Source of the DNA: Flavobacteriales bacterium | GTDB lineage: Bacteria; Bacteroidota; Bacteroidia; Flavobacteriales_D; JBKBNH01 | Direction: 5' to 3' | NCBI GenBank assembly: GCA_046295395.1 | Contig: JBKBNH010000002.1 | Coordinates: 163,584 to 227,583 of the forward strand | DNA length: 64,000 nucleotides | In this document: in pieces, positions 8,291-55,015 of the stretch | Numbering within the stretch: position 1 is the first letter of the stretch | How the letters are laid out: each line of letters begins with the position of its first letter | Made by a program: the position numbers and the translations under genes | The notes under the pieces: model-generated | Seen by the model: the letters and a program-made list of their open reading frames with translations, nothing else | Databases searched by the model: none | What the model was told of the DNA's origin: nothing

Positions 8291-8304
8291 AATTTCTTTT
8301 ACAT

Positions 8305-9134: not shown

Positions 9135-9174
9135 GATTGTTTTTCTTTTATAAACCCTTTTCGAGGGTGATTGT

Positions 9175-9573: not shown

Positions 9574-9589
9574 TAAACTGTAATTTACA

Positions 9590-11734
9590 ATGGCCAAAAG
9601 ACATAAATCCGTTGACCGCAAGGGTAAAGTTAAATCTTTTTTGCGAAATAACACCGTAGAACTCTACAGCAAAAACCCAAATAAAGTATTCAACTACAAG
9701 CAAATTTGCGCATTATTTGACATAAACGATAGCTCGCTGCGCAAATTAATTAACGACATATTGTTCGAATTGCGCGATGAGGGGCTGTTAACACAGGTAG
9801 AAAGAGGTAAATACAAGTGGAAAGGAAGCTCTGCAAAACTGAAAGGAGTGATACAGTTTACCCAACGGGGCTCGGCTTATGTAATACCCGACAATCCCGA
9901 TGAAGAAGACGTATTTATTTCTGCCGAAAACACCGGCATAGCCTTTAATGGCGACCGAGTATTGGTGGAGCTGTTGCGCTCTAAACGCAGCAAGCCCGAA
10001 GGCATGGTAGATAGCGTGCTGGAAAGGGGACGCAGGGTATACGTGGGAACTATTGACCGCAAAAAAGATTTTGCCTTTTGTGTGTGTGACAAAAAGCACG
10101 TGCACGTGGACTTTTACATCGACAAAGAAAAACTGAAAGGCGCCGCGCATGGCGACAAGGTGATTGTGGAGCTTACAGGTTGGCCCAATCCCAAAGCAAG
10201 CCCCTTTGGCGAAGTGATGGAAATACTGGGAAAAACCGGCGAAAACAATGCTGAAATTCACGCCATACTTGCTGAATACGGATTGCCTTACAAATTTCCT
10301 TATGCCGTAGAAAAAGAAGCCGAAAAGATAAGCCGAAAAATAACCGGCCGCGACCGCGAGGAACGGGAAGACTTTACCGATCGGGTTTTATTTACCATTG
10401 ACCCCGAAGATGCCAAAGATTTTGACGATGCTCTTTCGGTGAAAAAACTCGAAAACGGCAACTACGAAATAGGCGTTCATATTGCCGATGTTTCTCACTT
10501 TGTACGCCCCGGCTCTATTATCGACGAAGAGGCGAGGGTGCGGGGCAACTCGGTGTATCTGGTAGACCGCGTGGTGCCTATGCTGCCCGAGGTGCTGTCG
10601 AACAATGTGTGCTCGCTTCGCCCAAACGAAGACCGCTTGGCTTTTTCGGCGGTATTTGAAATGGACACACAAAGCAAAGTGCATAAGGCGCATTTTGCCA
10701 AAACAATCATACACTCTAAACGACGGTTTACTTACGAAGAAGCTCAGGAAATTATAGAAAAAGGCGAGGGCGAGCTGAGTGAAGAAATTCTACTGCTGGA
10801 CAACCTTGCCAAACAATTGCGTGCCAAACGACTGGAAAAAGGCGCCATGGAGGTAGACAGCGTAGAGGTAAAGTTTAAGCTAGACGAAAAAGGCAAACCA
10901 CTGGGCGTGTATACCAAAATATCGAAAGATGCACACAAGCTGATTGAAGAATTTATGCTGCTGGCAAATCGTGCAGTTTCCGAATATATCGGCAGACCGG
11001 AAAAAGGAAAAAGAGAAATACCTTTCGTTTACCGCGTTCACGACACGCCTGACGAACAAAAACTGGACGACCTGAAGAAATTCATCTTTCGGTTTGGATA
11101 TAAGCTGAGGCAGGAGAAAAACAAGCCTATTTCTTATGCCCTCAACAAGGTGCTGGAAGAGGCGCGCGAAAACGGCGACTCGGCACTCATCAGCCCTATG
11201 ATTGTTCGATCTATGGCCAAGGCGATTTATACCACCGAAAACATTGGGCATTACGGGCTTGGTTTTAGCCACTATACACACTTTACCTCGCCTATAAGGC
11301 GCTACCCCGATCTACTTGTGCACCGTATACTGGAGCACGTACTGATAAAATGGAAGCCGCTCTATGAGGAAAAAATCCTGGAAGAAATGTGCAAAGCCTG
11401 CTCGCAAACCGAGCGCAAAGCTGCTGAAGCCGAGCGCTCCTCTACCAAATACATGCAGGTAGTGTATCTGAGCGACAAGGTGGGCGAAGTTTTTGACGGA
11501 ACCATAAGCGGAGTTACCGACTGGGGCATATATGTTGAGCTGAATGAAAACCGATGCGAAGGGCTGGTGCACATTAAGACCCTGCGCGATGACTCGTATT
11601 ACTTCGATAGCGACAAGTTTATGATTGTGGGCCGCAAACACAAGCAAACCTTCTCGCTAGGCGACCAAGTAACCGTAAAAATAAAAGGCGTAGATCAATT
11701 GGCACGAACCATAGACCTAGTGTTGATGGAATAA
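9590..11734 (+). CDS. rnr: Ribonuclease R
   Basis: N-terminal HTH/cold-shock domain. RNB catalytic core (FTIDPEDAKDFDDALS). C-terminal S1 domain. 714 aa. Confidence 0.9.
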   Translation: MAKRHKSVDRKGKVKSFLRNNTVELYSKNPNKVFNYKQICALFDINDSSLRKLINDILFELRDEGLLTQVERGKYKWKGSSAKLKGVIQFTQRGSAYVIPDNPDEEDVFISAENTGIAFNGDRVLVELLRSKRSKPEGMVDSVLERGRRVYVGTIDRKKDFAFCVCDKKHVHVDFYIDKEKLKGAAHGDKVIVELTGWPNPKASPFGEVMEILGKTGENNAEIHAILAEYGLPYKFPYAVEKEAEKISRKITGRDREEREDFTDRVLFTIDPEDAKDFDDALSVKKLENGNYEIGVHIADVSHFVRPGSIIDEEARVRGNSVYLVDRVVPMLPEVLSNNVCSLRPNEDRLAFSAVFEMDTQSKVHKAHFAKTIIHSKRRFTYEEAQEIIEKGEGELSEEILLLDNLAKQLRAKRLEKGAMEVDSVEVKFKLDEKGKPLGVYTKISKDAHKLIEEFMLLANRAVSEYIGRPEKGKREIPFVYRVHDTPDEQKLDDLKKFIFRFGYKLRQEKNKPISYALNKVLEEARENGDSALISPMIVRSMAKAIYTTENIGHYGLGFSHYTHFTSPIRRYPDLLVHRILEHVLIKWKPLYEEKILEEMCKACSQTERKAAEAERSSTKYMQVVYLSDKVGEVFDGTISGVTDWGIYVELNENRCEGLVHIKTLRDDSYYFDSDKFMIVGRKHKQTFSLGDQVTVKIKGVDQLARTIDLVLME

Positions 11735-41553: not shown

Positions 41554-44502
41554 ATGCAAAGAGTTCTCGGACTATTTTTTTTACTTTTTCTAGTAAAACA
41601 TACACAAAGTCAAACCATTAAGTCTGTTCATCAGGAGCAAGCAGAAGAATATACTTCTTTGGGTTTTGACGATATGTATTACGAGTCCAATAATCAGGCG
41701 GCTACGATACAAAAATCAGCAAGAAATTGCTCTGCAAACAAAGTTGTATACGGCTGGCACCCTTACTGGAGTAATGGATTGCAAATAAATTACGATTGGA
41801 ACCTATTATCGCATTTGTGTTATTTTTCTTACGAAGTAGATGCCAATACGGGAAACGCCATTAACACCTATAATTTTGCCACTACGCCGGTTGTGACTAC
41901 TGCGCTAAACAATGGAGTGAAGGTACACCTGTGTGTTACGCTTTTTTCAAATCATACTACTTTTTTTGGTAATCCCACAGCTCGACAAACGCTTATTACA
42001 AACCTGATTAATATGATACAGGCAAGGGGTGCGCATGGGGTAAACATTGACTTTGAAAGCATGGCATCGTCTCAGTCGGCAAATTACACGGCATTTATGA
42101 TTGACCTATGCAACCAAATGCACGCTGCCATTCCGGGTTCAGAAGTAACTACCGCACTTCACGCAGTAGATTGGAGCGGTTTTTACGACATGGCTGTTTT
42201 AAATAATTATGTAGACTACTTCATGATTATGGGCTACGATTATTATTGGAGTGGAAGCAATCCCGCCGGGCCTAATGATCCGCTGTTTCATTTTGGCAGC
42301 ACCTACGATTACAATTTATCTAAGTCTACTACTTACTACCAGCATCAAGGGGCATCTTTATCAAAACTAGTGATGGGGCTTCCTTACTATGGCAGAGACT
42401 GGCCGGTGAGCTCCTTTTCGCTGCCCGCGCCAACCACGGGCACAGGTGTTTCAAGAACCTACAAGGTAGTGAAGGACAATACCAGCGGTAATTTTTCACC
42501 GACAAATCGAAACTACGAATCGGCAAGCAGAAGCACCTATTACAACTATACGGCCTCGGGAGTAATGAGGCAATGCTTCATTTCTGAAGAAAATGATTTG
42601 CGTGAAAGAATGGATTTTATAAACAAAAGAGGGCTTGCCGGAGTGGGAGTCTGGGCCTTGGGCTACGATGATGGTTACACCGAACTTTGGGATGCAATTG
42701 CCGAGTATTTTTCAGATTGTAGTGAAACGCCTTGTTCGGGAGTTTTAACAGATATAGGCGGAGGGCCCTTGAAAAATTATTACAACAACGAAAACTATAC
42801 ATTTACGCTTTCTCCTCCCGGCGCACAAAGTATCACAGTAAATTTTTCTTCGTTTAGCACGGAGGCAAATTACGATTTTCTCCATATTTATGATGGGCCA
42901 TCTACAGCTTCGCCTCAAATTCCCGGCAGTCCTTTTCACGGAACAAATAGCCCTGGCTCATTCACAAGTTCTTCAGGGCATTTAACCTTCAGATTTATTT
43001 CAGACAATGCCACTGTAAGCCCTGGGTGGAATGCAACTTATACTTGCCAGCAAGACAACATCCCGCCCACTACGGCGGTTTTAGCACCAAACGGATGGGT
43101 TACCGAGGATTTTACGGTAAACTTTACCGATGCGGATAATGTTGGGGGCTCGGGGGTAGACAAGAGTTTTTATCAAGTGTTGGAATTTGAGGGCACAGAA
43201 TGGCGCGCAAATACACAAAGAGGGTTCTTTAGCGACAACTTCGATCAAGCGGCGATACATCCCGATTGGACTAGTGTCACGGGAACTTGGCAAATTACAA
43301 ATGGCTATTTACACCAGTCAAATCAAGGTGTCGGAAACACCAACATTTATGCTTACCTAAAGCAAGATTTATCCAACCGTTATCTATACCACTGGGCCGG
43401 AAAAATGGATGGAACAGGCTCTAACAGAAGAGCGGGCTTTCATTTTTTCTGCGATAATCCAACTTTGCCTAATAGGGGAAACTCATACTTTGTATGGTTC
43501 AGGCTCGATAATAACCGCATACAAATATACAAGGTAGTAAACGACAATTTTGGGACACCGGTTTTGGATATACCCTACTCATTTTCTAATCAGTGGACCG
43601 ACTATAAAGTAACCTACGACCGCATTTTGGGTTCAATGAATGTGTATGTAAACGATATTTTGGCCGCTCAGTGGACTGACGGAGCTCCCTATCAAACGGG
43701 AGATTATATTTCTTTTAGAAGCGGCGATTGTGATTTCATGGCCAACAACTTAAAAGTATACCGAACAAGATTTCCATCGGTAAATGTTACCGTGGGGCTC
43801 GGGTCTTCTAACGAGATTCGCTATGAAAACATTAATCCGACTCAGCCCGCCGGACGAATAAAATCTATTGTTCAGGATGTTGCCGGAAACCTTTCCGTGG
43901 TTGCATCACAAGATGTTAATGTAGACTGGACACCTCCGGTGATGAGCTTTATACACGATGGGTTATCACAAGACGTGGACACCATATTTGCTCCCGATGC
44001 AGCAGAAGCAAACTGGAGTTTTTTAGACACCAACAGTCATGTGGCCGAATACTTTTTTTCAATGGGTACTCAGCCTTTGTTGGACGATGTTTACCCATAC
44101 ACATCAAATATGCTATCTACATCGGCTTCAGTTAGCTCAGGAATTCTTCAATCAGGAACTTGGTACTATTTCAACATAATTGCCGAAAACAATGCCGGGC
44201 TCAGAGATACTTTAAGCTCAAATGGATTCAGGTTTGTTTCACTTTTAGGTGTTGGCGAATTGGTGTTAACCGAAATTCCCCGATTATTTCCTAATCCTGC
44301 GCAGACATCTGCCACGGTAGGCTCGAAAAAAAATATTTCAGTAATTACTGTTTATGATGTGCTGGGCAGACAGGTTTTTTCTTCAACACCCAATGGAACC
44401 TCGGCACATCTTCCAGTGTATTTGTGGGCAGACGGAATTTATGTGGTAAGAATATTTTCAGAAGGCAGAGAGATTGACTTAAAACTGATTAAAAAACAGT
44501 AA
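41554..44502 (+). CDS. GH18-like glycoside hydrolase with CUB-like and lectin-like domains, secreted by T9SS (type-A CTD)
   Basis: Signal peptide. GH18 (beta/alpha)8 region whose catalytic motif is HGVNIDFE in place of the canonical DGxDxDWE. CUB-like domain (YDFLHIYDGPS...GWNATYTC). Por_Secre_tail C-terminus (LFPNPAQTSATV...VYDVLGRQVF...GIYVVRI). Confidence 0.8.
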   Translation: MQRVLGLFFLLFLVKHTQSQTIKSVHQEQAEEYTSLGFDDMYYESNNQAATIQKSARNCSANKVVYGWHPYWSNGLQINYDWNLLSHLCYFSYEVDANTGNAINTYNFATTPVVTTALNNGVKVHLCVTLFSNHTTFFGNPTARQTLITNLINMIQARGAHGVNIDFESMASSQSANYTAFMIDLCNQMHAAIPGSEVTTALHAVDWSGFYDMAVLNNYVDYFMIMGYDYYWSGSNPAGPNDPLFHFGSTYDYNLSKSTTYYQHQGASLSKLVMGLPYYGRDWPVSSFSLPAPTTGTGVSRTYKVVKDNTSGNFSPTNRNYESASRSTYYNYTASGVMRQCFISEENDLRERMDFINKRGLAGVGVWALGYDDGYTELWDAIAEYFSDCSETPCSGVLTDIGGGPLKNYYNNENYTFTLSPPGAQSITVNFSSFSTEANYDFLHIYDGPSTASPQIPGSPFHGTNSPGSFTSSSGHLTFRFISDNATVSPGWNATYTCQQDNIPPTTAVLAPNGWVTEDFTVNFTDADNVGGSGVDKSFYQVLEFEGTEWRANTQRGFFSDNFDQAAIHPDWTSVTGTWQITNGYLHQSNQGVGNTNIYAYLKQDLSNRYLYHWAGKMDGTGSNRRAGFHFFCDNPTLPNRGNSYFVWFRLDNNRIQIYKVVNDNFGTPVLDIPYSFSNQWTDYKVTYDRILGSMNVYVNDILAAQWTDGAPYQTGDYISFRSGDCDFMANNLKVYRTRFPSVNVTVGLGSSNEIRYENINPTQPAGRIKSIVQDVAGNLSVVASQDVNVDWTPPVMSFIHDGLSQDVDTIFAPDAAEANWSFLDTNSHVAEYFFSMGTQPLLDDVYPYTSNMLSTSASVSSGILQSGTWYYFNIIAENNAGLRDTLSSNGFRFVSLLGVGELVLTEIPRLFPNPAQTSATVGSKKNISVITVYDVLGRQVFSSTPNGTSAHLPVYLWADGIYVVRIFSEGREIDLKLIKKQ

Positions 44503-44503: not shown

Positions 44504-46615
44504 ATGAACTGGGGTGTAAAACCTTTTGTTCGCCTTCTGCCGCCGTTTATTATCGGAATAGTGCTTGGCATTTTTATTCCGTACACACCTATAGTAATTG
44601 CGGCTTGTTTTTATGTTTTTCTTTTGCTGCTGCTGGTGTTGTGGTTCACTCCCGTTTTTGCTAATTATCGCTGGCGATATGTTTTCGGAATTGTAATCAA
44701 TTTTGCCTTGATTTTTGGCGGCTGGCAGTTGACTGTAAATAAAAATCAGTCGGCAACGTTGGGGGCTGTTGCCAAAGAGGGTAAAGCCATTGTGGCAGAA
44801 ATTATAAAAGAGCCGAAAAAGAAAGCCAACAAGGTGGTAATAGAGGTTGCTGTAAGAGCGGTGAAAACGCCTGATTCGTGGGAAACCACACAAGGAAATG
44901 TGCTGCTCTCTTTGCCTACGGACGAAAACAGCTTTGCACTGGAAAAAGGAGACATTATCGCTTTTACCCCATCAATTAAAGAAGTGAAAAGCACAGCTAA
45001 TCCGGGGCAGTTTGATTATGCGCAGTATTTGCAGTTTCACTTAATCAAGAGCCAAGGGTTTTTAAGAAGCTATAACTGGACTCTGCTAGAAAAAAGCAGC
45101 TCAGGAATTTGGAACTGGGCGACAGAAATACGCAAATATGGTATACAAAAACTCGACAAGACACTAAAACCTAAAGAGGCGGCTGTTGCAGAAGCACTCA
45201 TATTCGGATACAAAAATAACCTTGATGCAGAAACTCAACAGGCTTTTTCATCGTCGGGGGCGATGCACGTGCTGGCAGTGTCGGGACTACACGTGGGTAT
45301 AATATTTATGCTTTGCGGGTTAATTTTTAAGCCTTTCAAGGGTTCAAAATACTTTTGGATAGCTACAATTATCACCTTGTTTATAATTTGGGGATATGCA
45401 ATGGTTACCGGCTTATCGCCTTCTGTTATGCGCGCGTCTACCATGTTTACCTTTATGGCGGTAGGAAAAAATCTTAACCGGCACACCAACATATACAACT
45501 CCATAGCCGCATCGGCGTTTTTATTGCTTCTTATAAACCCCTACATAATTACCGAAACAGGTTTTCAACTGTCTTATTTTGCGGTGATAGGAATAGTTTG
45601 GCTTCAGCCGATGATAAATGCGTGGTATCATTCTGGAAAGAAAATTCTCGACAAACTTTGGGAACTGACTTCAGTATCCATTGCGGCACAAACCGCTACC
45701 TTTCCTTTGGGAATGCTTTATTTCAATATGTTTCCCAATTATTTTCTATTGAGCAACCTCATAGTGATTCCTGCGGCTTTTACTATACTTATTTCCGGTC
45801 TCGCTTTTGTTGGTTTTTCTGAAATTCCATATCTCGGAGATTGGTTGGGGGTTCTTTTACAGTACGAAGTGTCCGCTCTCAACATGGCGGTATCATATAT
45901 TGAGCAAATGCCCAACGCCATTTCTGTATGGGTTATTTCTGCTTTTGAGGCGGTACTGATTTATGTTGTTTTTATTCAGCTAATAAGGTGGCTTAAAACT
46001 CCTTCCGGTAAAAAATTAGCGTTATGCCTTTCTTTGGTTGTCGTTCTTTGCTGTTCTTTTTCTTTCAGAAAGTTTAAAAACGACACACAACGGGAAATAG
46101 TAGTTTATAACGTGCCTTATCATTCGGCATTTAGTTTTATTCAAGGCAGAAGCCAAATTTTAATTACGAGTTTAAATCCAAAAGAGGATGATAAATCTAT
46201 ACGGTACAATTTAAAACCACACTGGCTTCAGGCTGGGCTTAACGGCGAAAAATACATAAGCACGAAAAAACTTAAACGGGAAAACACGCTTATTAATTTA
46301 TATAAATCCTTCGACCAGAACCTGCTCATAAGAAGAAACTATTTTCATTTTCATGGAAAGGACGTTGCATACGTGAACTCACAAACGAAATTGGCGCAGA
46401 GTAAGCAAAAGTTTTCGCCTCATTTGCTTATTGTTTCTGGGCGGCCTAATCTTACTCCTGCACAATTAATCCATTTGTTTTCTCCACAATTGGTGGTTTG
46501 TGATTCGGCTTGCTCGGGTGTTTTTGCTGCTGAGGTAGAAAAATTAGCACATGAAAAGGGAATACCATTTCACAACGTTAAAGAGCAGGGGGCCCTAAAA
46601 ATTAATTGTAAGTAA
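44504..46615 (+). CDS. comEC: ComEC/Rec2-family DNA internalisation membrane protein
   Basis: Polytopic membrane protein. Competence-domain motif HVLAVSGLHVGIIFM. C-terminal region related to metallo-beta-lactamases. Confidence 0.85.
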   Translation: MNWGVKPFVRLLPPFIIGIVLGIFIPYTPIVIAACFYVFLLLLLVLWFTPVFANYRWRYVFGIVINFALIFGGWQLTVNKNQSATLGAVAKEGKAIVAEIIKEPKKKANKVVIEVAVRAVKTPDSWETTQGNVLLSLPTDENSFALEKGDIIAFTPSIKEVKSTANPGQFDYAQYLQFHLIKSQGFLRSYNWTLLEKSSSGIWNWATEIRKYGIQKLDKTLKPKEAAVAEALIFGYKNNLDAETQQAFSSSGAMHVLAVSGLHVGIIFMLCGLIFKPFKGSKYFWIATIITLFIIWGYAMVTGLSPSVMRASTMFTFMAVGKNLNRHTNIYNSIAASAFLLLLINPYIITETGFQLSYFAVIGIVWLQPMINAWYHSGKKILDKLWELTSVSIAAQTATFPLGMLYFNMFPNYFLLSNLIVIPAAFTILISGLAFVGFSEIPYLGDWLGVLLQYEVSALNMAVSYIEQMPNAISVWVISAFEAVLIYVVFIQLIRWLKTPSGKKLALCLSLVVVLCCSFSFRKFKNDTQREIVVYNVPYHSAFSFIQGRSQILITSLNPKEDDKSIRYNLKPHWLQAGLNGEKYISTKKLKRENTLINLYKSFDQNLLIRRNYFHFHGKDVAYVNSQTKLAQSKQKFSPHLLIVSGRPNLTPAQLIHLFSPQLVVCDSACSGVFAAEVEKLAHEKGIPFHNVKEQGALKINCK

Positions 46616-46650
46616 TAAATAGAACAAAAGAAATTTGTAAGTTCGCATTA

Positions 46651-47025
46651 GTGAGAGCGCTCGTTTCAATACTGTTAGTTATTGCTTTATCCTTTCCTTT
46701 TGGGATGAAAACAGCTTTGGTTTTGAATTATTTGACTAATACGAATTATTATTCCACAGAGCTTTGCGAGAATAAAAATACCCCCGAGTTAAACTGTAAC
46801 GGCAAGTGTCATTTATCCAAAGAGATAAGGGCGATTGAGCGGTCGGCAGAGGATGTTCCGGGACTACCTGAATTGGTTAAAGTAGAAATTTCGCCATTCA
46901 TCACATCTGCTTGGAACTTTAACTTGAGCAACCAAACTTATTCCGAGCAACAAAGATATAATGCTTACCTCTTTGTTGCTTCTACATCTTACATTAAAGG
47001 CATATTCCACCCTCCCCGGAGTTAA
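46651..47025 (+). CDS. Small secreted Cys-containing protein, hypothetical (CNGKCH motif)
   Basis: Non-ATG start plus a signal peptide. CX3CH and ELC motifs. Sits directly upstream of the MbnP/MbnH-like pair. No family assignment. Confidence 0.35.
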   Translation: MRALVSILLVIALSFPFGMKTALVLNYLTNTNYYSTELCENKNTPELNCNGKCHLSKEIRAIERSAEDVPGLPELVKVEISPFITSAWNFNLSNQTYSEQQRYNAYLFVASTSYIKGIFHPPRS

Positions 47026-47141
47026 TTGTTACTAATCTAATTTTTAGGCGTAGTCTGAAATAAAATTTGCAACCGGATTCTTTAATTTGCAATCCAGTTG
47101 CAACCTCTTTTATGTATTAAAAACAATTAAAACCCAAAAAC

Positions 47142-48002
47142 ATGAAAACGTTAAAATTTAACTTATTTACGATTGTCCTAATTGTTCTTTTCGGAGGAAT
47201 AGCCACAACAACCACATCTTGTAAAAAGAAAAAAGGATGTACGGATCCTAAAGCTAAAAATTATAAGGCAGAAGCCACCAAAGACGATGGCTCTTGCGAA
47301 TATGACCAACCTGCACCAACGCCCACAACGGGAACGCTTGAATTAAAATTTGAGCACGTTTGGGGGCCTTCCGGCGCAACATTCAGCATGAATACTGCGC
47401 TTGTTCATCCAAGCACATCTGAAGAGCTCACTTTTCAAACGCTTAAGTACTATATCACCAATATTAAACTTAAGAAAACAGATGGTACCTGGTGGACTCA
47501 AACCGAAAGCTACTACCTAGTGGATGCATCTAGTGCGGCTATTCCGAGTTTTACCATACAGGGGGTTCCGGCAGGGGACTATACCGATATCAAATACATG
47601 ATAGGGGTAGACAGTACTAGAAACGTTTCAGGAGCTCAATCCGGAGCTTTATCTACATCTAACGGAATGTTTTGGAGCTGGAATTCAGGATACATCTTCA
47701 TTAAGGCAGAAGGCTTATCTCCCGATTCGCCAAACGGAGCATTCACCTATCACATTGGAGGATTCAGAGACGCAAACAACACGAATGCCATAAGAATAAA
47801 TAGCCAAAACTTAGCAGCGGCTACCCTTGCAGTAGCACCAAATGCAAGTCCTTCTGTTCATTTTAAAGTAAATGTAGCCCGATTCTGGCATGGTGGATTA
47901 AGCGTGTCAACACTTAATAACGTTCACATGCCAGGAGCAAATGCCTTAATTCTGGCGGACAATTTTCAGGGAGCAATTAATGTAGATCACATTCACAATT
48001 AA
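47142..48002 (+). CDS. MbnP-like periplasmic (lipo)protein, a putative copper-binding partner of the di-haem peroxidase
   Basis: Lipobox TTTSC. Beta-rich 286-aa protein. Sits 13 nt upstream of a di-haem CCP-family gene, the conserved mbnP-mbnH arrangement. The family call rests on recollection of MbnP features and gene context. Confidence 0.5.
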   Translation: MKTLKFNLFTIVLIVLFGGIATTTTSCKKKKGCTDPKAKNYKAEATKDDGSCEYDQPAPTPTTGTLELKFEHVWGPSGATFSMNTALVHPSTSEELTFQTLKYYITNIKLKKTDGTWWTQTESYYLVDASSAAIPSFTIQGVPAGDYTDIKYMIGVDSTRNVSGAQSGALSTSNGMFWSWNSGYIFIKAEGLSPDSPNGAFTYHIGGFRDANNTNAIRINSQNLAAATLAVAPNASPSVHFKVNVARFWHGGLSVSTLNNVHMPGANALILADNFQGAINVDHIHN

Positions 48003-48015
48003 TTGAATTGGCAAT

Positions 48016-49029
48016 ATGTTGCCTTTTAGAATTGCACTAATTACTGTTTTGCTTTTTGCTTGTAAAAAAAATAAGCCGGACGAACCACAACCCGCTTTTC
48101 GTGGGTTTGTGGCGCCCGGTCATTTTCCAAGCCCGGTTTATAATTTCAACAACAACCCTGTTACCGGACCAGGGCTTGAGTTGGGTAGAAAACTGTTTTA
48201 CGACCCCTTCCTTTCCAAAGACAACACAGTGTCTTGTGCTAGTTGCCATTTTCAAAGCGAAGCATTTTCTGACCCCGGAATGATGGTGAGCATGGGGGTA
48301 GATGGAAAAGTTGGAGCCAGAAATTCGCCTGCCCTTTTTAACCTTGCCTGGCATAGTTCCTTTATGTGGGATGGCGGAATAAATCATATAGAAATAATGC
48401 CTTTGGCGCCGATTACGGATTCCCTTGAAATGGATATTTCTATAGTTGATTTGCTGCAAAAATTAAATAATCATCCGCAATATCCGGCATTATTCAAAAA
48501 GGCCTTTAATGTTGACATTATTGATGATCAAAAGCTTTTTTATGCGCTTACTCAGTTTATGGGAATGTTGATTTCGGCCAACTCGAAATACGACCGCTAC
48601 GTGAAAGGAGTGGGCTCTTTTACACAGGCCGAAAAAAACGGGTACGACTTGTTTCGGCTACATTGCGAATCATGCCATAAGGAGCCTCTATTCACCTCTC
48701 ACCAATTTGAAAATAACGGACTAGATAATGTTTTTTTCGACCTGGGCAGAATGAGAATTACGTTGTTACCCCAAGACGAGGGGAAGTTTAAAATACCCAG
48801 CCTTCGAAATGTAGCGCTTACTTATCCCTATATGCACGATGGCAGATTTGCCAGCTTAGACCAGGTGCTAGACCACTACGCTTCAGGAATAAAGCAAAGT
48901 GCCACACTGTCTCCAAAACTTCAACAAGGCATTCCTCTTACTAATCAGGAAAAGGACGAGCTTAAGCAATTCCTGTACACCTTAACCGACCACCAGTTTG
49001 TTACAAACCCAAGATTTTCGCAACCATAA
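48016..49029 (+). CDS. Di-haem cytochrome c peroxidase family enzyme (MbnH/MauG-like)
   Basis: Two c-type haem motifs, CASCH (aa about 75) and CESCH (aa about 218). Lipoprotein-type signal (LFAC). About 337 aa, typical of bacterial CCPs. Confidence 0.8.
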   Translation: MLPFRIALITVLLFACKKNKPDEPQPAFRGFVAPGHFPSPVYNFNNNPVTGPGLELGRKLFYDPFLSKDNTVSCASCHFQSEAFSDPGMMVSMGVDGKVGARNSPALFNLAWHSSFMWDGGINHIEIMPLAPITDSLEMDISIVDLLQKLNNHPQYPALFKKAFNVDIIDDQKLFYALTQFMGMLISANSKYDRYVKGVGSFTQAEKNGYDLFRLHCESCHKEPLFTSHQFENNGLDNVFFDLGRMRITLLPQDEGKFKIPSLRNVALTYPYMHDGRFASLDQVLDHYASGIKQSATLSPKLQQGIPLTNQEKDELKQFLYTLTDHQFVTNPRFSQP

Positions 49030-49940
49030 TGAAATACATAATCACCACCTTTTTTTTCTTAATTTTTGTAAATAGCACCTCTGCTTGCGATGTGTGTGGT
49101 TGCTCAGCTGGGGGAAGTTATTTGGGAATATTGCCACAGTTTCAGAAAAATCTTTTTGGTATGCGCTATAATTACCAAACGTTTTCTCATCCCAATAGCG
49201 AAACCAGTTTTAATGGGGCGAGCAAGGCATTAAGTGATGAGTTTCATAATACGGATACCTGGGTGAGGTATTACCCGAGCAATCGAATTCAGTTGCTAGC
49301 TTTTGTGCCCTACAAGGTTCGCCAGCGTGTTGAAACTGAAAAAACAACAACCATACATGGGTTGGGCGACATAAGTTTTTTACTTAATTATGTATTGATT
49401 AATACCGGAGACAGCACCCACAAAGCCTGGAAAAACACCTTGTTAGTAGGGGGAGGCGTGAAGTTGCCAAATGCAAAATACCGCCAGCGAGATGCAAAAA
49501 AACAGTTGTTGCCCGCCGCATTTCAATTGGGAACAGGGGCTTATGCTTACACATTGGGAGCAACTTATACTACGCGATACAGAAACTGGGGGCTAAATAC
49601 GGATGCATACTACCGCATACAAACCGAAAACGAGTCAACTTATCAGTTTGGAAACCAATTTTCCGCATCAGCCGCTCTTTTTTACTGGAAAAACAAAGGA
49701 AAAACAACTATTTTGCCTCATGCCGGTGTTCAATACGAATCCTTTGATAAGGATTATGAATGGGCTTTTGTAAAGCCATACACCGGAGGCAGTTTGCTTA
49801 TGAGTAGTATGGGTATAGACCTTTACCACAAAAGAGCAGTATTTAGTTCTTCTTTTCAAATTCCTATGGCTCAGCAAATACCGTCTAATCAGCCTGCACC
49901 ACAATGGCGGGCATCGGTTGGATTGGCCGTCTTGTTCTGA
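49029..49940 (+). CDS. Outer-membrane beta-barrel protein with an N-terminal CxxCxC motif
   Basis: Signal peptide ending STSA, immediately followed by CDVCGCS. The rest is beta-strand-like with aromatic alternation and a C-terminal F. Its start overlaps the MbnH-like stop. Confidence 0.5.
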   Translation: MKYIITTFFFLIFVNSTSACDVCGCSAGGSYLGILPQFQKNLFGMRYNYQTFSHPNSETSFNGASKALSDEFHNTDTWVRYYPSNRIQLLAFVPYKVRQRVETEKTTTIHGLGDISFLLNYVLINTGDSTHKAWKNTLLVGGGVKLPNAKYRQRDAKKQLLPAAFQLGTGAYAYTLGATYTTRYRNWGLNTDAYYRIQTENESTYQFGNQFSASAALFYWKNKGKTTILPHAGVQYESFDKDYEWAFVKPYTGGSLLMSSMGIDLYHKRAVFSSSFQIPMAQQIPSNQPAPQWRASVGLAVLF

Positions 49941-50036
49941 TAATTATTTATCGGGGGCATCCATTCGTTATTCGGTTATAAAAAAGACCCCTTATTGCTT
50001 AACTTTGCAGAGTTGTTTTATCATTAAATTCTTTAT

Positions 50037-50447
50037 ATGCGTATATCAATTCTATTCCTAGCCGTATTATTTGTGGGCTGCTCTTCTCTAGAAAGCAACA
50101 ATGAATTAAATCAAGTTGAGAATAAGCCCGAAGTGCAGTCAGCCATACAGCAAAACAAAGAAGTTAGCCCAGATGGACCTTTTAAATTGCATTATCCCGA
50201 CGGCAAACTAAAGATAGAAGGTGTAATTACAGCCGGGAACAGAGATGGTGCATGGACATCTTACCACCCCAATGGGGTAAAAGCCAGTGAAAACCATTAT
50301 GTTTTAGGGCAATTAACCGGAAAAACCACTGCTTGGCACGAGAACGGACTATTGTTCTATATCGGGTATTATAAAAATGGGAATAAAGTCGGAAAATGGA
50401 TCTTCTTTGATAAAAACGGAGAGCCGGTTAGCGAAGAAACTTACTAA
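50037..50447 (+). CDS. MORN-repeat (YwqK-family) lipoprotein
   Basis: Lipobox FVGCSS. Repeats HYPDGKLKIEG...YHPNGVKASE...WHENGLL...YYKNGNKVGKW. Confidence 0.65.
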   Translation: MRISILFLAVLFVGCSSLESNNELNQVENKPEVQSAIQQNKEVSPDGPFKLHYPDGKLKIEGVITAGNRDGAWTSYHPNGVKASENHYVLGQLTGKTTAWHENGLLFYIGYYKNGNKVGKWIFFDKNGEPVSEETY

Positions 50448-50462
50448 TTCGAACCTAGGTAA

Positions 50463-51149
50463 CTAATCAGCAAGCACTTCATTTTCGTCCTTTTTTTCAG
50501 GCTCAATCGATGGATTTGAGTTTTCTAATTCCGGTTCATCTGTCGTTTTCACGGATTCTTGACGGCGCTTAAAGTACGAGCGTTGTTTAATAAAAATAAT
50601 ACCTATACCTAGGGTAATGGCGCTATCGGCGATGTTAAATATGGGGGGGAATACTTCGCCGCCGCCCAACCAAGGAACCCACTGAGGCCAGGTAAGGTCT
50701 ATGTGGAGCATATCTACTACATTTCCGGTAAGAAACCCGGCATATCCACCCCCTTCCGGCAGAAATTGAGCGGTTATAACGTAGCTGTCGCTGAATAAAA
50801 TGCCATAAAACGCAGAGTCGATTATGTTGCCAACAGCCCCGGCAAAAACCAAAGAAACACAAATAACAAGTCCTTGTGGGGCGCTTTCGCGAATCAATTT
50901 GCGGATATACCAAGCAATGGCAACTGCGGCAAAAATTCGGAATACACTTAAAAAGACCTTGCCGTATTCACCGGCAAATTCCCACCCGAAGGCCATCCCT
51001 CGGTTTTCAATAAAGTGAATTTTAAACCACCCCCAATCTAATCCTACTTCTCCGATAACCAACTTGGTTTTTACCCAAATCTTTACCGCTTGATCGACAA
51101 AGAGAATAAGGAAAATGGTTAGCAGCGAAAGTTTCGCGCTCTTGCTCAT
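50463..51149 (-). CDS. lspA: Lipoprotein signal peptidase II
   Basis: Four TM segments. Conserved NRGMAFGW and IADSAIT motifs. Acidic C-terminal tail. Confidence 0.85.
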   Translation of the reverse strand: MSKSAKLSLLTIFLILFVDQAVKIWVKTKLVIGEVGLDWGWFKIHFIENRGMAFGWEFAGEYGKVFLSVFRIFAAVAIAWYIRKLIRESAPQGLVICVSLVFAGAVGNIIDSAFYGILFSDSYVITAQFLPEGGGYAGFLTGNVVDMLHIDLTWPQWVPWLGGGEVFPPIFNIADSAITLGIGIIFIKQRSYFKRRQESVKTTDEPELENSNPSIEPEKKDENEVLAD

Positions 51150-51538
51150 TACTGCTCTCTTTTAGCTTCTATACTTAAAGTTGCGTGGGGCACCAAACGA
51201 AGTCTTTCCTTTGGAATAAGCTTTTTGGTTACTCGGCAAATTCCATAGGTTTTATTCTGAATGCGGATTAGTGCATTTTCAAGATTCATAATAAACTTTT
51301 CCTGACGTGCAGCCAACTGAGCAGTTTCTTCTCTCGAAAGCGTTTCAGAGCCATCTTCCATCATCTTAAAAGCTGCGCCGGTGTCATCGGTGCCGTTATA
51401 ATCGCTGTAAGAAAGCGTGCTTTTAAGCATTTCGTAATCTTCGCGAGCCTCGGTCAGTTTTTTTTCTATTAATTCTTTAAACTCAGCCAAATCAGCATCA
51501 CTGTATCTTGTTTTTTCTTTTTCGTCTGTTTTTGCCAT
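51149..51538 (-). CDS. DksA/TraR-family regulator (Cys-poor Bacteroidota variant)
   Basis: Coiled-coil N-terminus. C-terminal YGICRVTKKLIPKERLRLVPHATLSI resembling the DksA C4 region with the cysteines replaced. Conserved ileS-dksA-like-lspA gene order. Confidence 0.55.
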   Translation of the reverse strand: MAKTDEKEKTRYSDADLAEFKELIEKKLTEAREDYEMLKSTLSYSDYNGTDDTGAAFKMMEDGSETLSREETAQLAARQEKFIMNLENALIRIQNKTYGICRVTKKLIPKERLRLVPHATLSIEAKREQ

Positions 51539-51550
51539 AATCGTATCGTA

Positions 51551-54500
51551 TTAAATTGCTTTTTCTATTTCTATGGAGGTAAGAACGCCTTCTTCAACCT
51601 CTACTTCCTGAGCGTTTTCGCCTGTGGTTTCTACTAATTCCAGTGAACTCGCCAAGGTTTCCGAACAAATATAATTTAAATTATTATTGATAGCACCTTC
51701 AATGGCATTATGATTTTTAATTTTTAGCAGAATTTTATCGGTTACCTCCAATCCTAAGTCTTTTCTGAAGTTTTGTATCCTGTTTACAAATTCTCGGGCT
51801 ATTCCTTCGTCCTTAAGTTCGGGAGTAATGGTTATGTCCATTGCCACGGTTAAGGCATTTTCGGAAGCAACCAGCCATCCCGGTATGTCATCGGTAGTAA
51901 TTTCCACGTCTTCCGGCTCTAGGTTAACGTTTTCGCCGCCTACAGTCAATTGGTAGCTCTGTTCACGCTCCAGTTTCAAAATATCGTCCTGAGTAAATGC
52001 GTTTACCCGAGCGGCAATACTCTTCATTAATTTGGCATACTTTGGCCCAAGTGTTTTAAAATTAGGCTTTATTCGTTTTACCAATACGGCCGAAGAATCT
52101 TCCAAAAGCTCTAGTTCTTTCACATTTACTTCGGTCAATATCAAGTCCTTTACCTTCGAAATTTGCTCTGCAAAAGTTTGGTTTAAAACCGGAATCATTA
52201 GTTTTTGCAGGGGTTGGCGAACGCGGATTTGTTCTTTTTTTCTTAAACTAAGAACCAATGAGCAAACCTGTTGCGCAATATTCATCCGCTGCTCCAAGTC
52301 GACATCTATTGCATTTTTGTTTACCGAAGGGAAGTCGGTGTGATGAACTGATTTAACCTTATTTTTACTTGACACCTGATTCAGGTCATTGAAAAGTTGT
52401 TCGCTATAAAATGGCGCAATGGGTGAAGAAAGCACGGCCACCGTTTCCAAGCAAGTGTACAAGGTTTGGTAAGCGGCTATCTTATCTTCGGTGTAATCTC
52501 CTCTCCAGAAGCGTTTTCTACAAAGACGAACATACCAATTACTCAGGTGGTCGAGTACAAAATCCTGAATTTCGCGAGCCGCTTTTGTAGGCTCATATTC
52601 TGCATAATGCCTGTCTACCGATTTTATTAGCGAGTTTAATTTTGAAATAATCCAACGGTCAATTTCTTGGCGCTTTTCCATTGGAATATCTGCCTCGCTG
52701 TAAGAGAAATTATCCAAGTTGGCATACAGCGCAAAAAACGCATACGTATTGTGCAGCGCACGGAACATTTTGCGTTGGGTTTCGCTTATTCCTTCAAGGT
52801 CGAACTTTAGGTTGTCCCAAGGTTGGGCGTTGGAAATCATATACCAACGGGTGGCATCTGCACCGTAGGTTTTCAATGTTTCGAAAGGGTCTACAGCGTT
52901 GCCAAGGCGTTTCGACATTTTTTGCCCGTTTTTGTCCAATACCAGTCCGTTGGACACTACATTTTTATAGGCAACATTATCGAAACAGAGTGTTGCAATG
53001 GCGTGCAGTGTGTAGAACCACCCCCGGGTTTGGTCAACTCCTTCGGCAATAAAATCGGCAGTTTTTCCGGCAATTTCCACCCATTCTTTGTTTTCGAACG
53101 GATAGTGCCACTGTGCATAAGGCATCGCTCCCGAGTCGAACCACACATCAATAAGGTCTAATTCGCGTTTGAGCGGATTGCCCTTTTCAGAAACCAGTAT
53201 GATATTGTCAACGTGTGGGCGGTGCAAATCAAAGCGGTTGTAGTTTCTTTCCGAAAAATCTCCGGGAGCAAAATCAGCCAACGGATTTTTATCCATAAGT
53301 CCGGCTTTAACGGACTCATCACACTCTTTTTTGAGTTCTTCCATTGAACCGATACATTTTACTTCGCCTAGTTCGTTGCGCCAAATGGGAAGCGGAATAC
53401 CCCAAAATCGAGAACGGGAAAGATTCCAGTCGTTGGCGTTTTCCAGCCAGTTGCCAAAACGCCCCGTGCCGGTGCTTTCGGGTTTCCAGTTGATGGTTTT
53501 GTTTAGTTCGGCCATACGCGCTTTTACTTCTGTGATTTTTATAAACCACGAATCGAGCGGATAGTACAACACGGGCTTATCTGTGCGCCAACAATGCGGA
53601 TAGCTGTGCTCGTATTTTTCTTTTTTAAAGAGTTTGCCTTCGTTTTGCAACTTGAGTATAATTCGCTCGTCCACGCTTAGGTAAGACAGCTTACTGGTGT
53701 CGCTGATGATTCCCTGCAAGGACTGTTTTTGCTTTTCCAACTCGGCAGTTTTTTCTTTTTCGGCGAGGTAGGCTTCTTTCACGGGTTCGCCTCCCAGTCC
53801 GAAAACAGAATCCTGAATTTGTGAAACAAATCTTCCGCGCAAATCAACCAAAGGCACTAGGTTGCCTTTGTCGTCTTCAACAAGCATTGGCGGCACTCCA
53901 GCCTCTCGGGCTACGCGCATATCGTCTGCACCAAAGGTGGGGGCAATGTGCACAATACCGGTACCGTCTTCGGTGGTAACAAAATCTCCGGCTATTACCC
54001 GGAAGGCTTTTTCGGGATTTTCGACAGGCTGGGCGTAAGGAAGGAGTTGCTTATAAGACAATCCAATCAGGTCGCCGCCTTTAAATTCCTGAAGTATTTT
54101 GAAAGGAATTTTTTTATCAACGGATTGATATGTTTCAAACTCTTCATCCGATTGGGCCTCGGCGTATTTTCCACTAAGCTGCTTGGTAACCAAGGCTTTT
54201 GCCAAGATTATTTTTATGCGTTTGTGGTCGTATTGGTTAAATGTGTCCACCAATACATAGTCTATGTTGTTTCCAACGGCTAACGCCGTATTTGAGGGCA
54301 ATGTCCAAGGGGTTGTAGTCCAAGCTAACAGATGCGTGCCCTCTAAATCTGCCTTGGAGGAGCCACCTATTTTAAACATCGCCACGGCACTTGTATCTTT
54401 CACGTCGCGGTAGCACCCGGGTTGGTTTAACTCGTGCGAACTAAGCCCTGTGCCCGCAGCCGGGGAGTAAGGCTGTATGGTGTAGCCCTTGTAGAGCAAT

Positions 54501-55015
54501 CCCTTTTCGTGAATTTGCTTCAGCAGCCACCATACGGTTTCTATATACTTGTTTTCGTAGGTAATATAGGGGTTTTCCATATCTACCCAATAGCCCATTT
54601 TGTGGGTTAGGTCGTTCCACACATCTGTGTATTTCATCACCGCTTTGCGACAGGCATCGTTGTATTCGGCTACAGATATTTTTTTCCCAATGTCTTCTTT
54701 GGTAATGCCCAATTCCTTCTCCACACCAAGTTCTACGGGTAGCCCGTGGGTATCCCAGCCGGCCTTACGGTTTACCTGATAGCCTTTAAGCGTTTTATAC
54801 CGACAAAAAATATCTTTTATCGTACGCGCCATCACGTGGTGAATGCCGGGCATACCGTTGGCACTGGGAGGGCCTTCAAAAAACACAAAAGGCTCGGCTC
54901 CCTCACGAATCGCCACACTTTGCTCAAATGTTCTCTCCTCTTCCCATTTCCTCAGCACCTGCTCGGCCACATTAGGCAATTCCAGCGATTTGTATTCGGT
55001 ATATTTCTTTTGCAT
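51551..55015 (-). CDS. ileS: Isoleucine--tRNA ligase (type 2)
   Basis: PSANGMPGIHH (HIGH). KMSKR (KMSKS). CP1 editing domain. 1154 aa. Confidence 0.95.
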   Translation of the reverse strand: MQKKYTEYKSLELPNVAEQVLRKWEEERTFEQSVAIREGAEPFVFFEGPPSANGMPGIHHVMARTIKDIFCRYKTLKGYQVNRKAGWDTHGLPVELGVEKELGITKEDIGKKISVAEYNDACRKAVMKYTDVWNDLTHKMGYWVDMENPYITYENKYIETVWWLLKQIHEKGLLYKGYTIQPYSPAAGTGLSSHELNQPGCYRDVKDTSAVAMFKIGGSSKADLEGTHLLAWTTTPWTLPSNTALAVGNNIDYVLVDTFNQYDHKRIKIILAKALVTKQLSGKYAEAQSDEEFETYQSVDKKIPFKILQEFKGGDLIGLSYKQLLPYAQPVENPEKAFRVIAGDFVTTEDGTGIVHIAPTFGADDMRVAREAGVPPMLVEDDKGNLVPLVDLRGRFVSQIQDSVFGLGGEPVKEAYLAEKEKTAELEKQKQSLQGIISDTSKLSYLSVDERIILKLQNEGKLFKKEKYEHSYPHCWRTDKPVLYYPLDSWFIKITEVKARMAELNKTINWKPESTGTGRFGNWLENANDWNLSRSRFWGIPLPIWRNELGEVKCIGSMEELKKECDESVKAGLMDKNPLADFAPGDFSERNYNRFDLHRPHVDNIILVSEKGNPLKRELDLIDVWFDSGAMPYAQWHYPFENKEWVEIAGKTADFIAEGVDQTRGWFYTLHAIATLCFDNVAYKNVVSNGLVLDKNGQKMSKRLGNAVDPFETLKTYGADATRWYMISNAQPWDNLKFDLEGISETQRKMFRALHNTYAFFALYANLDNFSYSEADIPMEKRQEIDRWIISKLNSLIKSVDRHYAEYEPTKAAREIQDFVLDHLSNWYVRLCRKRFWRGDYTEDKIAAYQTLYTCLETVAVLSSPIAPFYSEQLFNDLNQVSSKNKVKSVHHTDFPSVNKNAIDVDLEQRMNIAQQVCSLVLSLRKKEQIRVRQPLQKLMIPVLNQTFAEQISKVKDLILTEVNVKELELLEDSSAVLVKRIKPNFKTLGPKYAKLMKSIAARVNAFTQDDILKLEREQSYQLTVGGENVNLEPEDVEITTDDIPGWLVASENALTVAMDITITPELKDEGIAREFVNRIQNFRKDLGLEVTDKILLKIKNHNAIEGAINNNLNYICSETLASSLELVETTGENAQEVEVEEGVLTSIEIEKAI

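Follow-up and report, generated by a model that had tools for sequence, protein, structure and literature searches.

We predict that a four-gene locus in a Flavobacteriales bacterium is an envelope operon that most likely imports copper across the outer membrane, a reading in which we place moderate confidence. The genes adjoin one another on the forward strand in the order S (a small envelope protein), an MbnP-like lipoprotein, an MbnH-like di-haem lipoprotein and an outer-membrane beta-barrel, here called BAR, within a window of 64,000 nucleotides of contig JBKBNH010000002.1, the whole stretch of DNA analysed, to which all coordinates refer (Table 1). Sequence comparison supports a model in which BAR takes the place of a TonB-dependent copper receptor. 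Copper handling by the module, including copper binding, kynurenine formation and transport, we infer solely from homology and gene context. Of the two roles offered by the initial annotation, acquisition or detoxification, acquisition is favoured. The observations that the annotation named as grounds for rejecting its reading were all checked for, and none of them refuted it.

The four open reading frames, their coordinates and their shared strand agree with the initial annotation, as does the spacing of 13 nt between the MbnP-like stop and the MbnH-like start. The overlap between the MbnH-like and barrel genes, read there as ATGA, is instead a single base (TAATG). The spacer between S and the MbnP-like gene contains a hairpin whose stem is of the type UUGCAACC...GGUUGCAA and, after it, a U-rich tract (RNA fold of -19.6 kcal/mol, z = -2.3), which may act as an attenuator or partial terminator. 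Stem-loops are also visible in many S-MbnP spacers at other loci. A scan of positions 46400-50500 for sigma-70 promoters and terminators found sites no commoner than in shuffled sequence; Bacteroidota promoters differ from this type.

Table 1. Positions of the genes and candidate functional sites of the module in the window.
Feature	Positions	Strand	Basis or description
S	46651-47025	+	ORF, GTG start, 124 aa
Cys loop of S, CENKNTPELNCNGKC (C-x9-C-x-G-K-C)	46765-46809	+	translation
S-MbnP intergenic region with hairpin	47026-47141	+	sequence and RNA fold
MbnP-like lipoprotein	47142-48002	+	ORF, 286 aa
WxW motif W178-S-W180, candidate Trp-to-kynurenine site	47673-47681	+	homologue alignment, translation
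MbnH-like di-haem lipoprotein	48016-49029	+	ORF, 337 aa
Haem motif CASCH of MbnH-like protein	48235-48249	+	translation
Haem motif CESCH of MbnH-like protein	48664-48678	+	translation
Tyr288 of MbnH-like protein	48877-48879	+	alignment
BAR outer-membrane beta-barrel	49029-49940	+	ORF, 303 aa
CDVCGC cysteine cluster of BAR	49086-49103	+	directly after predicted cleavage site

Gene neighbourhoods indicate that the module, whole or in part, is inherited together across Bacteroidota. We compiled two sets of loci, 80 species-level genomes seeded on BAR and 80 metagenome loci seeded on S, which were retrieved with narrower family alignments and are therefore biased to closer relatives. Among the BAR-seeded genomes, S or its variant S2 was present in 74, MbnP in 48 and MbnH in 45, adjacent and on the same strand; 43 had both MbnP and MbnH, in 40 cases together with S or S2 and in 3 cases with neither of these, and about one-third of BAR loci had no MbnP or MbnH. 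The count of 48 for MbnP is HMM-scored, as clustering gave 71 of 80 by lumping in another family. His-rich, Ig-like lipoproteins of about 130 aa found in these loci form a family separate from MbnP, and YHS-domain and YtkA-like proteins are also present in modules. The gene order in Flavobacterium sediminilitoris is identical to that in the window, and in Pontibacter S and BAR occur without an accessory lipoprotein. Because the CxxCxC cluster of BAR is conserved and the neighbourhood recurs in dozens of species, the features of this locus are not due to chance.

The best marker of the system is S. Its family comprises 399 Bacteroidota proteins, every one of them named hypothetical, and profile or sequence searches of Pfam, NCBIfam and the PDB matched it to no known family. 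In the protein, a hydrophobic helix at the N-terminus is followed by a Cys loop, and the C-terminus carries an FHPP motif. Residues C39, C49, G51 and C53 are invariant in 65 family sequences, and at P121 and P122 the family alignment shows complete or near-complete conservation. A low-confidence AlphaFold model (pLDDT 62.5) places helices at residues 2-29 and 54-65 and a loop at 38-53, with the remainder disordered. The CNGKCH sequence that had been noted as a CX3CH motif is present, but it is not a conserved motif: His54 is found in only 20 of the 65 family members, and a haem-binding role was rejected on this ground. S2 keeps just one of the three loop cysteines, and S may therefore not be a metal carrier.

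The link to copper comes in part from the other partners of S. A copper-type TonB-dependent receptor is present in 33 of the 80 metagenome loci seeded on S. Four of these copper-type receptors were tested, and all had TIGR01778 (TonB-copper) as their best NCBIfam match; for one, the best PDB match was OprC (7e-40). Equivalents of C143, M147, H323 and M325, the copper site defined in OprC (PMC8610252), are kept in 28 of 28 full-length copies of the copper-type receptors. S precedes either BAR or a copper-type receptor, never both, which lends independent support to the earlier proposal that the barrel stands in for a TonB-dependent receptor. That S is common to BAR and to OprC-type receptors with a complete site supports copper import, with BAR replacing the receptor. 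In addition, pairs of S with BAR or with a receptor are often neighbours of a nos cluster, whose product, N2O reductase, is a copper enzyme; the flanks of 17 loci contain nosZ, and the five Pontibacter S-BAR loci are all among them. In the window itself, no copper enzyme was found near the module.

The second gene of the module encodes a recognizable member of the MbnP family, in agreement with the initial annotation. Residues 63-262 match positions 1-188 of the 189 in Pfam MbnP (PF20243) at 178.1 bits (cut-off 27, E 2.3e-52), and the Trp pair of the WxW motif is kept. The score against the NCBIfam equivalog TIGR04052 (MbnP_like_WxW), however, is 38.3 bits, below the cut-off of 140, and by these comparisons the protein belongs to a divergent, Cys-free Bacteroidota branch of Pfam MbnP rather than to the canonical equivalog. 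Its N-terminus is lipoprotein-type (TTTSC followed by KKK), and its only cysteines are C27 in the lipobox and C33 and C52 in the N-terminal linker, so that residues 63-286, the Pfam-matched domain, have none. Of 52 MbnP-like homologues, 51 keep W178 and 51 keep W180, and H204 is also conserved in the alignment. A PDB search with the single sequence returned nothing relevant; the solved MbnP 7L6G was reached by the family profile only, in a weak alignment (E 0.12) that places WxW with GMAWNW and H204 opposite the His of VHVGS. The role of WxW and Kyn174 in MbnP and the chemistry of copper and kynurenine have been described previously (PMC11951088).

The di-haem protein encoded by the third gene matches CCP_MauG (PF03150; E 2e-50). 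Its best NCBIfam family is TIGR04039 (MbnH; E 2e-68), at 230.9 bits, below the cut-off of 362.85 but ahead of the MauG family at 180.5 bits, and its best PDB match is MbnH 6E1C (4e-46, compared to 1e-36 for BCCPs). Both CxxCH motifs seen in the first reading were found, as CASCH and CESCH, and they are invariant in 48 MbnH-like homologues. Tyr288, in the sequence VLDHY, shows conservation of at least 90% and lines up with MauG Tyr294 and with the Tyr of the IDIY stretch of 6E1C; by alignment, this is the position of the Tyr axial ligand in MauG and of the Met ligand in BCCPs. By its best family, its best solved relative and this Tyr, the enzyme is not a canonical BCCP. W118, between the haems, is conserved in 45 of the 48 homologues, and the N-terminus is lipoprotein-type (LLFAC followed by KKNK).

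BAR belongs to a large, unannotated Bacteroidota family, with about 4,500 representatives when clustered at 50% identity. It models as a 12-stranded barrel resembling COG4313 and FapF channels, ends in Phe and, at 303 residues, matches neither the Plug nor the TonB_dep_Rec profile. The mature N-terminus had been read as CDVCGCS, and this sequence does follow the predicted cleavage site (NSTSA followed by CDVCGCS), opening a conserved segment, CDVCGCSxGGxYxGILPQF. The CxxCxC pattern occurs in 113 of the 120 closest homologues; among 144 cluster representatives at 50% identity, CxxCxC is present in 110, CxxC in 28 and some other two-Cys form in 4. All invariant cysteines of the family are in this cluster, and no Met or His is conserved family-wide. 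The conserved segment of 22 residues precedes strand 1 and is modelled at pLDDT <50, and its placement inside the barrel lumen, as in Pput2725, is thus an analogy only. Obligatory lipidation of the first cysteine was considered unlikely, given that the -2 position is highly variable and that in F. sediminilitoris CDACGC lies about 25 residues past the signal peptide.

One alternative is that the module handles cargo other than copper, such as a hydrophobic or other small molecule, or zinc or iron. The cysteines would then form structural disulfides that hold a plug, as periplasmic CxxC pairs often do form disulfides, and the MbnP/MbnH-like pair would carry out a different oxidative modification. 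Some S-linked TonB-dependent receptors, in Hymenobacter and Chitinophaga, do resemble siderophore receptors more than copper receptors, with a PepSY_TM protein encoded after them, but most S-linked receptors carry the complete OprC copper site. Similarly, although the MbnP-like branch has diverged and does not have the four canonical cysteines, it conserves WxW and His just as copper-binding MbnP does. COG4313 channels have been implicated in uptake of hydrophobic compounds, and PF13557 (Phenol_MetA_deg), which BAR itself does not match at E <= 0.1, matches 2 of 28 aligned BAR relatives (best E 3.5e-10); against this, two-Cys barrel variants have Met/His-rich loops, and nosZ, nosL, nosD and YHS-domain partners accompany modules. 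On this evidence we consider a non-copper cargo improbable.

Alternatively, the module could protect against copper or another thiophilic metal (Ag, Hg or Cd) by sequestration or outward release, the role suggested for barrels of the PcoB/CopB type, whose N-termini bind metal. BAR is, like PcoB/CopB (PDB 7PGE), a small outer-membrane barrel with an N-terminal extension that is a candidate for metal binding, but its similarity to PcoB is far below that to COG4313 or FapF, and it gave neither a CopB-family profile match nor a close match to that fold. The window contains no efflux ATPase, RND pump, multicopper oxidase or metal-sensing regulator, and none of these recurs among the 160 loci examined; the OprC-type receptors that share S are importers, and the nosZ that modules adjoin encodes a consumer of copper. 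A protective role therefore seems unlikely to us. Still harder to credit is a BAR that forms no metal channel and acts as a Slam-like or FapF-like translocon exporting the tail of S or the neighbouring MbnP-like, His-rich or YtkA-like lipoproteins to the surface: the MbnP-like protein of the window has no acidic export signal, S-BAR pairs in Pontibacter lack accessory lipoproteins, YtkA-like lipoproteins bearing LES accompany TonB-dependent receptors where BAR is absent, the conserved CxxCxC would be left unexplained, and the mutual exclusion of BAR and copper-type receptors beside S indicates alternative conduits rather than a helper.

The module that we propose to import copper combines features of several known systems. 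Like the MbnP/MbnH pair of methanobactin operons and their relatives (Methylosinus trichosporium OB3b; PDB 7L6G and 6E1C), which usually adjoins the TonB-dependent MbnT, it has a beta-rich WxW protein adjacent to a MauG-like di-haem enzyme and beside an outer-membrane component. It departs from that pair in that neither protein reaches its NCBI equivalog cut-off, both are lipoproteins and the mature MbnP-like domain has no cysteine, whereas 7L6G is described as a 'four-Cys motif protein'. The outer-membrane partner, unlike MbnT, has no plug domain or TonB box, and S is an extra small Cys protein relative to MbnP/MbnH operons. A kynurenine copper-binding protein with a di-haem peroxidase is also known from methanotrophs (MopE/SACCP and CorA/CorB), and MopE is surface-associated; many of the MbnP-like homologues bear a signal that resembles one for surface export. 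The copper-binding partner in those systems, however, is of a different fold and sequence family, and no barrel or S-like gene has been described for them.

As a proposed route by which copper would cross the outer membrane, with Cys as one of the ligands, the module resembles OprC/NosA of Pseudomonas (PDB 6FOK), and it is Bacteroidota OprC-type receptors, with a CxxxM-HxM site, that take BAR's position beside S, near nos genes like NosA. BAR would be a functional analogue only: it is non-homologous, with 12 strands instead of 22, without a plug and presumably without energy coupling, and its candidate site is the CxxCxC of the N-terminal extension instead of CxxxM-HxM. Its 12-stranded model is closer to COG4313 Pput2725 (PDB 4RL8) and FapF (5O65), but the former group is linked to hydrophobic substrates and the latter to amyloid export, neither has a Cys cluster, and the gene context of BAR, unlike theirs, is metal-related.

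The proposed mechanism of copper import begins with the MbnH-like enzyme, whose peroxide-derived high-valent haem chemistry would turn W178 (or W180) of its MbnP-like partner into kynurenine. This residue, together with H204 and perhaps M176, would form a copper site, and the loaded lipoprotein would hand its copper to BAR. Most homologues of this lipoprotein bear a signal like that for surface export in Bacteroidota, which the window copy lacks. By analogy with COG4313, N-terminal thiolates in the lumen of BAR would let Cu(I) through selectively and without TonB. With its N-terminal helix as a presumed anchor and a long disordered tail, S would dock on the outer-membrane conduit, whether BAR or an OprC-like receptor, and there take up the metal or pass it on within the periplasm. 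More speculatively, and with clearly less confidence than in copper import itself, BAR could represent a new class of small TonB-independent metal channels in which a Cys plug passes Cu(I) by thiolate exchange, and S an adaptor used throughout the phylum, perhaps long enough to span the periplasm, that links whichever copper conduit a Bacteroidota cell has to downstream delivery, for example to N2O reductase or haem-copper oxidases. Surface MbnP-like, YtkA-like and His-rich lipoproteins would then perform the capture step, in a SusCD-like logic for metal.

Entry of ionic copper across the outer membrane of Gram-negative bacteria is poorly understood, and OprC-type and CrtA-type TonB-dependent receptors are among the few characterised routes (PMC8610252, PMC12914433). 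The analysis presented here suggests a modular copper-uptake toolkit in Bacteroidota built on two unannotated families, BAR and S, which would connect the kynurenine chemistry of MbnP/MbnH with an alternative conduit that possibly needs no energy. Cultivable carriers, including strains of Flavobacterium, Pontibacter, Fulvivirga and Chryseolinea, make the system genetically testable. The adjacency to nosZ in several lineages may bear on how copper is supplied to N2O reductase in clade II N2O reducers, which are abundant in the environment.

Sequence and gene context show that the four-gene module of this Flavobacteriales MAG is conserved and that its MbnP/MbnH components come from a system that binds copper and forms kynurenine. 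All four ORFs proposed in the initial annotation are present, on the same strand and with the same boundaries. The 13-nt spacing between the MbnP-like stop and the MbnH-like start was borne out, as were the two CxxCH motifs of the MbnH-like protein, which read CASCH and CESCH on translation; the overlap between the MbnH-like gene and BAR, the gene for an outer-membrane beta-barrel, is a single base (TAATG) and not the ATGA described. Translation also verified the lipoboxes TTTSC (MbnP-like) and LLFAC (MbnH-like) and gave the Cys loop of S, the small Cys protein encoded upstream, as CENKNTPELNCNGKC. BAR and S are each 100% identical to an NCBI entry (ACK4K0_02265 and ACK4K0_02250, respectively). 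The neighboring genes (41554-44502 and 50037-55015) are housekeeping or unrelated, with no signs of mobile elements in these flanks, and the 64-kb window shows no evident sign of a copper enzyme, efflux pump, or metal regulator. The spacer between S and the MbnP-like gene (47026-47141) contains a hairpin, UUGCAACC...GGUUGCAA, followed by CUCUUUUAU (-19.6 kcal/mol, z = -2.3), and stem-loops also occur in this spacer at many other loci. This hairpin may act as an attenuator or a partial terminator and tune the ratio of S to downstream expression.

Features of the module and its flanks (window positions)
Feature	Position	Strand	Description
Upstream neighbors			urocanase; GH18-CUB protein with T9SS sorting tail; ComEC
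S	46651-47025	+	GTG start, 124 aa
MbnP-like protein	47142-48002	+	ORF, 286 aa
MbnH-like protein	48016-49029	+	ORF, 337 aa
BAR	49029-49940	+	ORF, 303 aa
CDVCGC motif of BAR	49086-49103	+	confirmed by translation
N-terminal peptide of BAR			CDVCGCSAGGSYLGILPQF; cysteines C20, C23, C25
Downstream neighbors			MORN-repeat lipoprotein; LspA; DksA/TraR-like protein; 1154-aa ORF, presumably isoleucyl-tRNA synthetase (IleS)-like

As the initial annotation had anticipated, the MbnP-like lipoprotein matches Pfam MbnP nearly end to end (E 2.3e-52, 178 bits, cut-off 27); against the NCBI MbnP_like_WxW equivalog model it scores only 38 bits (cut-off 140). The conserved Trp expected of an MbnP is found in a WxW motif (W178 and W180) kept in 51 of 52 aligned relatives, among which H204 occurs in 50 and M176 in 32. 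The top PDB match of a profile of these relatives is the solved MbnP 7L6G, a weak match (E 0.12) in which GMFWSWNSGY lies opposite GMAWNWQAG and the conserved His opposite the His of VHVGS. MbnH converts the WxW Trp of MbnP (Trp174) to kynurenine, one component of a His/Met/water/kynurenine copper site (PMC11951088). Canonical MbnP was deposited as a "four-Cys motif protein", whereas the mature domain of the MbnP-like protein in the window has no Cys. Between its lipobox and the MbnP domain, residues 32-54 (47235-47303) form an extra mini-motif, GCTDPKAKNYKAEATKDDGSCEY, and the MbnP-like protein of another locus (L125) is preceded by a similar stretch, CTD..NY...DDGSC.Y. A weak NCBIfam match of the mini-motif to a chryseobasin-related RiPP peptide (E 0.029) is probably spurious.

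The MbnH-like protein matches CCP_MauG (E 2e-50), and among NCBIfam families it scores best against MbnH (2e-68), though below the cut-off of that model. Of the solved structures, MbnH 6E1C is the closest to it (4e-46); canonical peroxidases (1e-36) and MauG (2e-27) score less well. Tyr288, which lies in VLDHY, shows at least 90% conservation across 48 homologues and aligns with MauG residue 294, a position that holds the Tyr ligand of the six-coordinate heme in MauG and Met in canonical peroxidases. The pair is not a canonical peroxidase beside an unrelated gene. The Pfam MbnP match and WxW motif, together with the MbnH-like matches and Tyr288, therefore identify the pair as a Bacteroidota branch of the MbnP/MbnH system that is divergent and anchored as lipoproteins, within the Pfam MbnP and CCP_MauG families but outside NCBI's canonical equivalogs. 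We regard its membership in the MbnP/MbnH family as very probable.

BAR has no match in Pfam or NCBIfam and no PDB relative by sequence. Its fold is like that of the COG4313/FapF barrels, but it is not a sequence member of that group; it shares no homology with OprC, and its similarity to PcoB is distant. The family comprises 941 proteins in a 90%-clustered collection, or 4462 representatives at 50% identity (1118 with E <= 1e-30). Named members are all from Bacteroidota and are labeled "hypothetical protein" or "transporter". The CxxCxC motif, whose conservation in orthologues had been in question, is kept by 113 of the 120 closest homologues; the 144 cluster representatives divide into 110 with CxxCxC, 28 with CxxC only, 4 with other two-Cys forms, and 2 that are truncated. 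Judging from these alignments, the Cys motif is a hallmark of the family, and no Cys, Met, or His is conserved elsewhere in the barrel. Two-Cys forms of the CDGGC and CC type are accompanied by Met/His-rich loops. The motif belongs to a highly conserved pre-strand segment of 22 residues (CDVCGCSxGGxYxGILPQFxKN) that is modeled with low confidence. In the barrel Pput2725, the residues ahead of strand 1 enter from the periplasmic side, fold up inside the lumen, and leave the channel nearly closed (PMC4493636). In F. sediminilitoris, about 25 residues separate the signal peptide from the Cys motif of BAR, which therefore need be neither the mature N-terminus nor a site of lipidation.

A scan with BAR, one genome per species, retrieved 211 relatives, and the best 80 loci were scored with HMMs built in this analysis. 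Among these 80, S was present in 53 and S2, a distant variant of S, in 21 (74/80 together), the MbnP-like gene in 48, the MbnH-like gene in 45, a His-rich Ig-like lipoprotein (about 130 aa, weakly DUF4625/Big_7) in 33, and a YHS-domain lipoprotein (PF04945) in 14. All partner genes are adjacent to the barrel and on the same strand. The order S, MbnP-like, MbnH-like, BAR is found in the window and F. sediminilitoris; elsewhere S2 replaces S in this order, BAR precedes the pair, or S-BAR occurs with the His-rich lipoprotein or alone. The His-rich lipoproteins carry motifs such as HEH, DHS, and HCHGH (for example L014:8943-9341, L006:7213-7620, and L032:9740-10123) and are likely metal-binding accessories that can replace or accompany MbnP. 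In Saprospiraceae (L011, L025, L032, L035, L041, L047, and others), the MbnP-like and MbnH-like genes are separated by genes for the YHS-domain lipoprotein and for an M1-family peptidase whose C-terminus is a T9SS sorting domain. Upstream of S in these loci, a divergently oriented ECF sigma factor gene is common.

Searches of Pfam, NCBIfam, and PDB gave no match for S; a profile search found a family of 399 proteins, all uncharacterized. Four of its positions, C39, C49, G51, and C53, never vary, and P121 and P122 hardly do. The CX3CH motif noted earlier is not conserved: His54 occurs in only 20 of 65 sequences, which rules out a conserved heme motif. AlphaFold models S poorly (pLDDT 62.5): a hydrophobic helix at the N-terminus (2-29) leads to the Cys loop, after which come a short basic helix and a disordered tail that terminates in FHPP. 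S2, from Cytophagales, is homologous to S (hhalign probability 98.2%, E 4e-14), keeps one loop Cys, and has a conserved His-Cys added within the hydrophobic helix. We argue that this helix is retained as a membrane anchor and not cleaved, because residues inside it are conserved.

In the reverse approach, a metagenome scan seeded on S gave 80 loci, in which S was not specific to BAR: 33 contained one type of TonB-dependent receptor, 25 a YtkA-like lipoprotein (PF13115), 22 the MbnP-like gene, 19 BAR, and 13 the MbnH-like gene. The receptor is OprC-like. TIGR01778, "TonB-dependent copper receptor", is the best NCBIfam model for four of six copies tested, OprC is the best PDB match (7e-40; runner-up 7e-14), and equivalents of the OprC ligands Cys143, Met147, His323, and Met325, which define its copper site (PMC8610252), are kept in all 28 full-length copies. 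With the CxxxM-HxM site complete, OprC-type receptors thus exist in Bacteroidota. BAR and this receptor never occur together next to S. From sequence and genomic neighborhood, S is a marker gene common to the module and bona fide OprC-type copper importers, and BAR takes the receptor's slot. A second recurrent module, S, YtkA-like lipoprotein, OprC-type receptor (L097, L105, L107, L142, L094, and others), is often divergent from cytochrome c-nosZ, and some of its lipoproteins have Met/His-rich stretches (for example MPMMHMMTMSH). In Hymenobacter luteus (L082) and a Chitinophaga sp. (L083), S precedes receptors that best match a siderophore-receptor family; therefore S may not be strictly copper-specific. 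After the Hymenobacter receptor comes a PepSY_TM protein, in the place that PA3789 holds behind oprC in Pseudomonas.

In 17 loci nosZ is part of the flank, namely in all five Pontibacter S-BAR loci and in 12 S-receptor loci. In Pontibacter (L062, L066, L070, L076, and L079; ~2300-11300 in each), the gene after S-BAR encodes a qNor-type nitric oxide reductase, and nosZ-nosL-nosD-nosF-nosY runs divergently, away from S-BAR; CDKGC replaces CDVCGC in the barrel, and MbnP and MbnH are not nearby. The nosZ-flanked arrangement parallels that of NosA, the OprC orthologue of Pseudomonas stutzeri, which was proposed to supply copper to N2O reductase, although a later nosA-knockout study did not confirm this (PMC8610252).

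At least two acidic residues just past the lipidated Cys, resembling the Bacteroidota lipoprotein export signal (PMC5080379), are found in 59/70 MbnP-like, 21/26 YtkA-like, and 30/40 His-rich lipoproteins, compared to 0/13 YHS lipoproteins. This suggests that the lipoproteins with the signal are surface-exposed capture proteins, like the surface-associated MopE of methanotrophs. The signature is absent from the window MbnP-like (CKKKKGC...) and MbnH-like (CKKNKPDE) proteins, so both may face the periplasm here.

A link to copper in general is likely, and copper import with BAR as the conduit is the function that we favor by a modest measure. MbnH would mature the MbnP-like lipoprotein by acting on W178 or W180, after which the lipoprotein would capture copper and hand it to BAR. 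The Cys-bearing N-terminal segment would line or gate the lumen so that Cu(I) passes without TonB, and S would dock onto the conduit and relay the metal. Such a system would work in a manner akin to the MbnPH-MbnT or OprC/NosA copper-uptake loci. A non-copper substrate, with the cysteines as structural disulfides, is unlikely given the conserved OprC site, the nos and YHS contexts, and the Met/His-rich variants. Detoxification or efflux is slightly less plausible still, as efflux and oxidase genes are absent and S also accompanies importers. A Slam/FapF-like translocon for the neighboring lipoproteins, which the fold and the export signals would fit, is the most doubtful reading, since some S-BAR loci have no lipoproteins, BAR and the receptor exclude each other, and such a role leaves the Cys motif without an explanation.

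The literature that we found on MbnP/MbnH, and on nosZ and TonB-dependent uptake of copper in Bacteroidetes, describes no such module; this check was indirect because BAR and S have no searchable names, and absence is not proven. The module would be most significant if BAR turns out to be a copper channel that works without TonB and S an adaptor that serves Bacteroidota copper importers in general.
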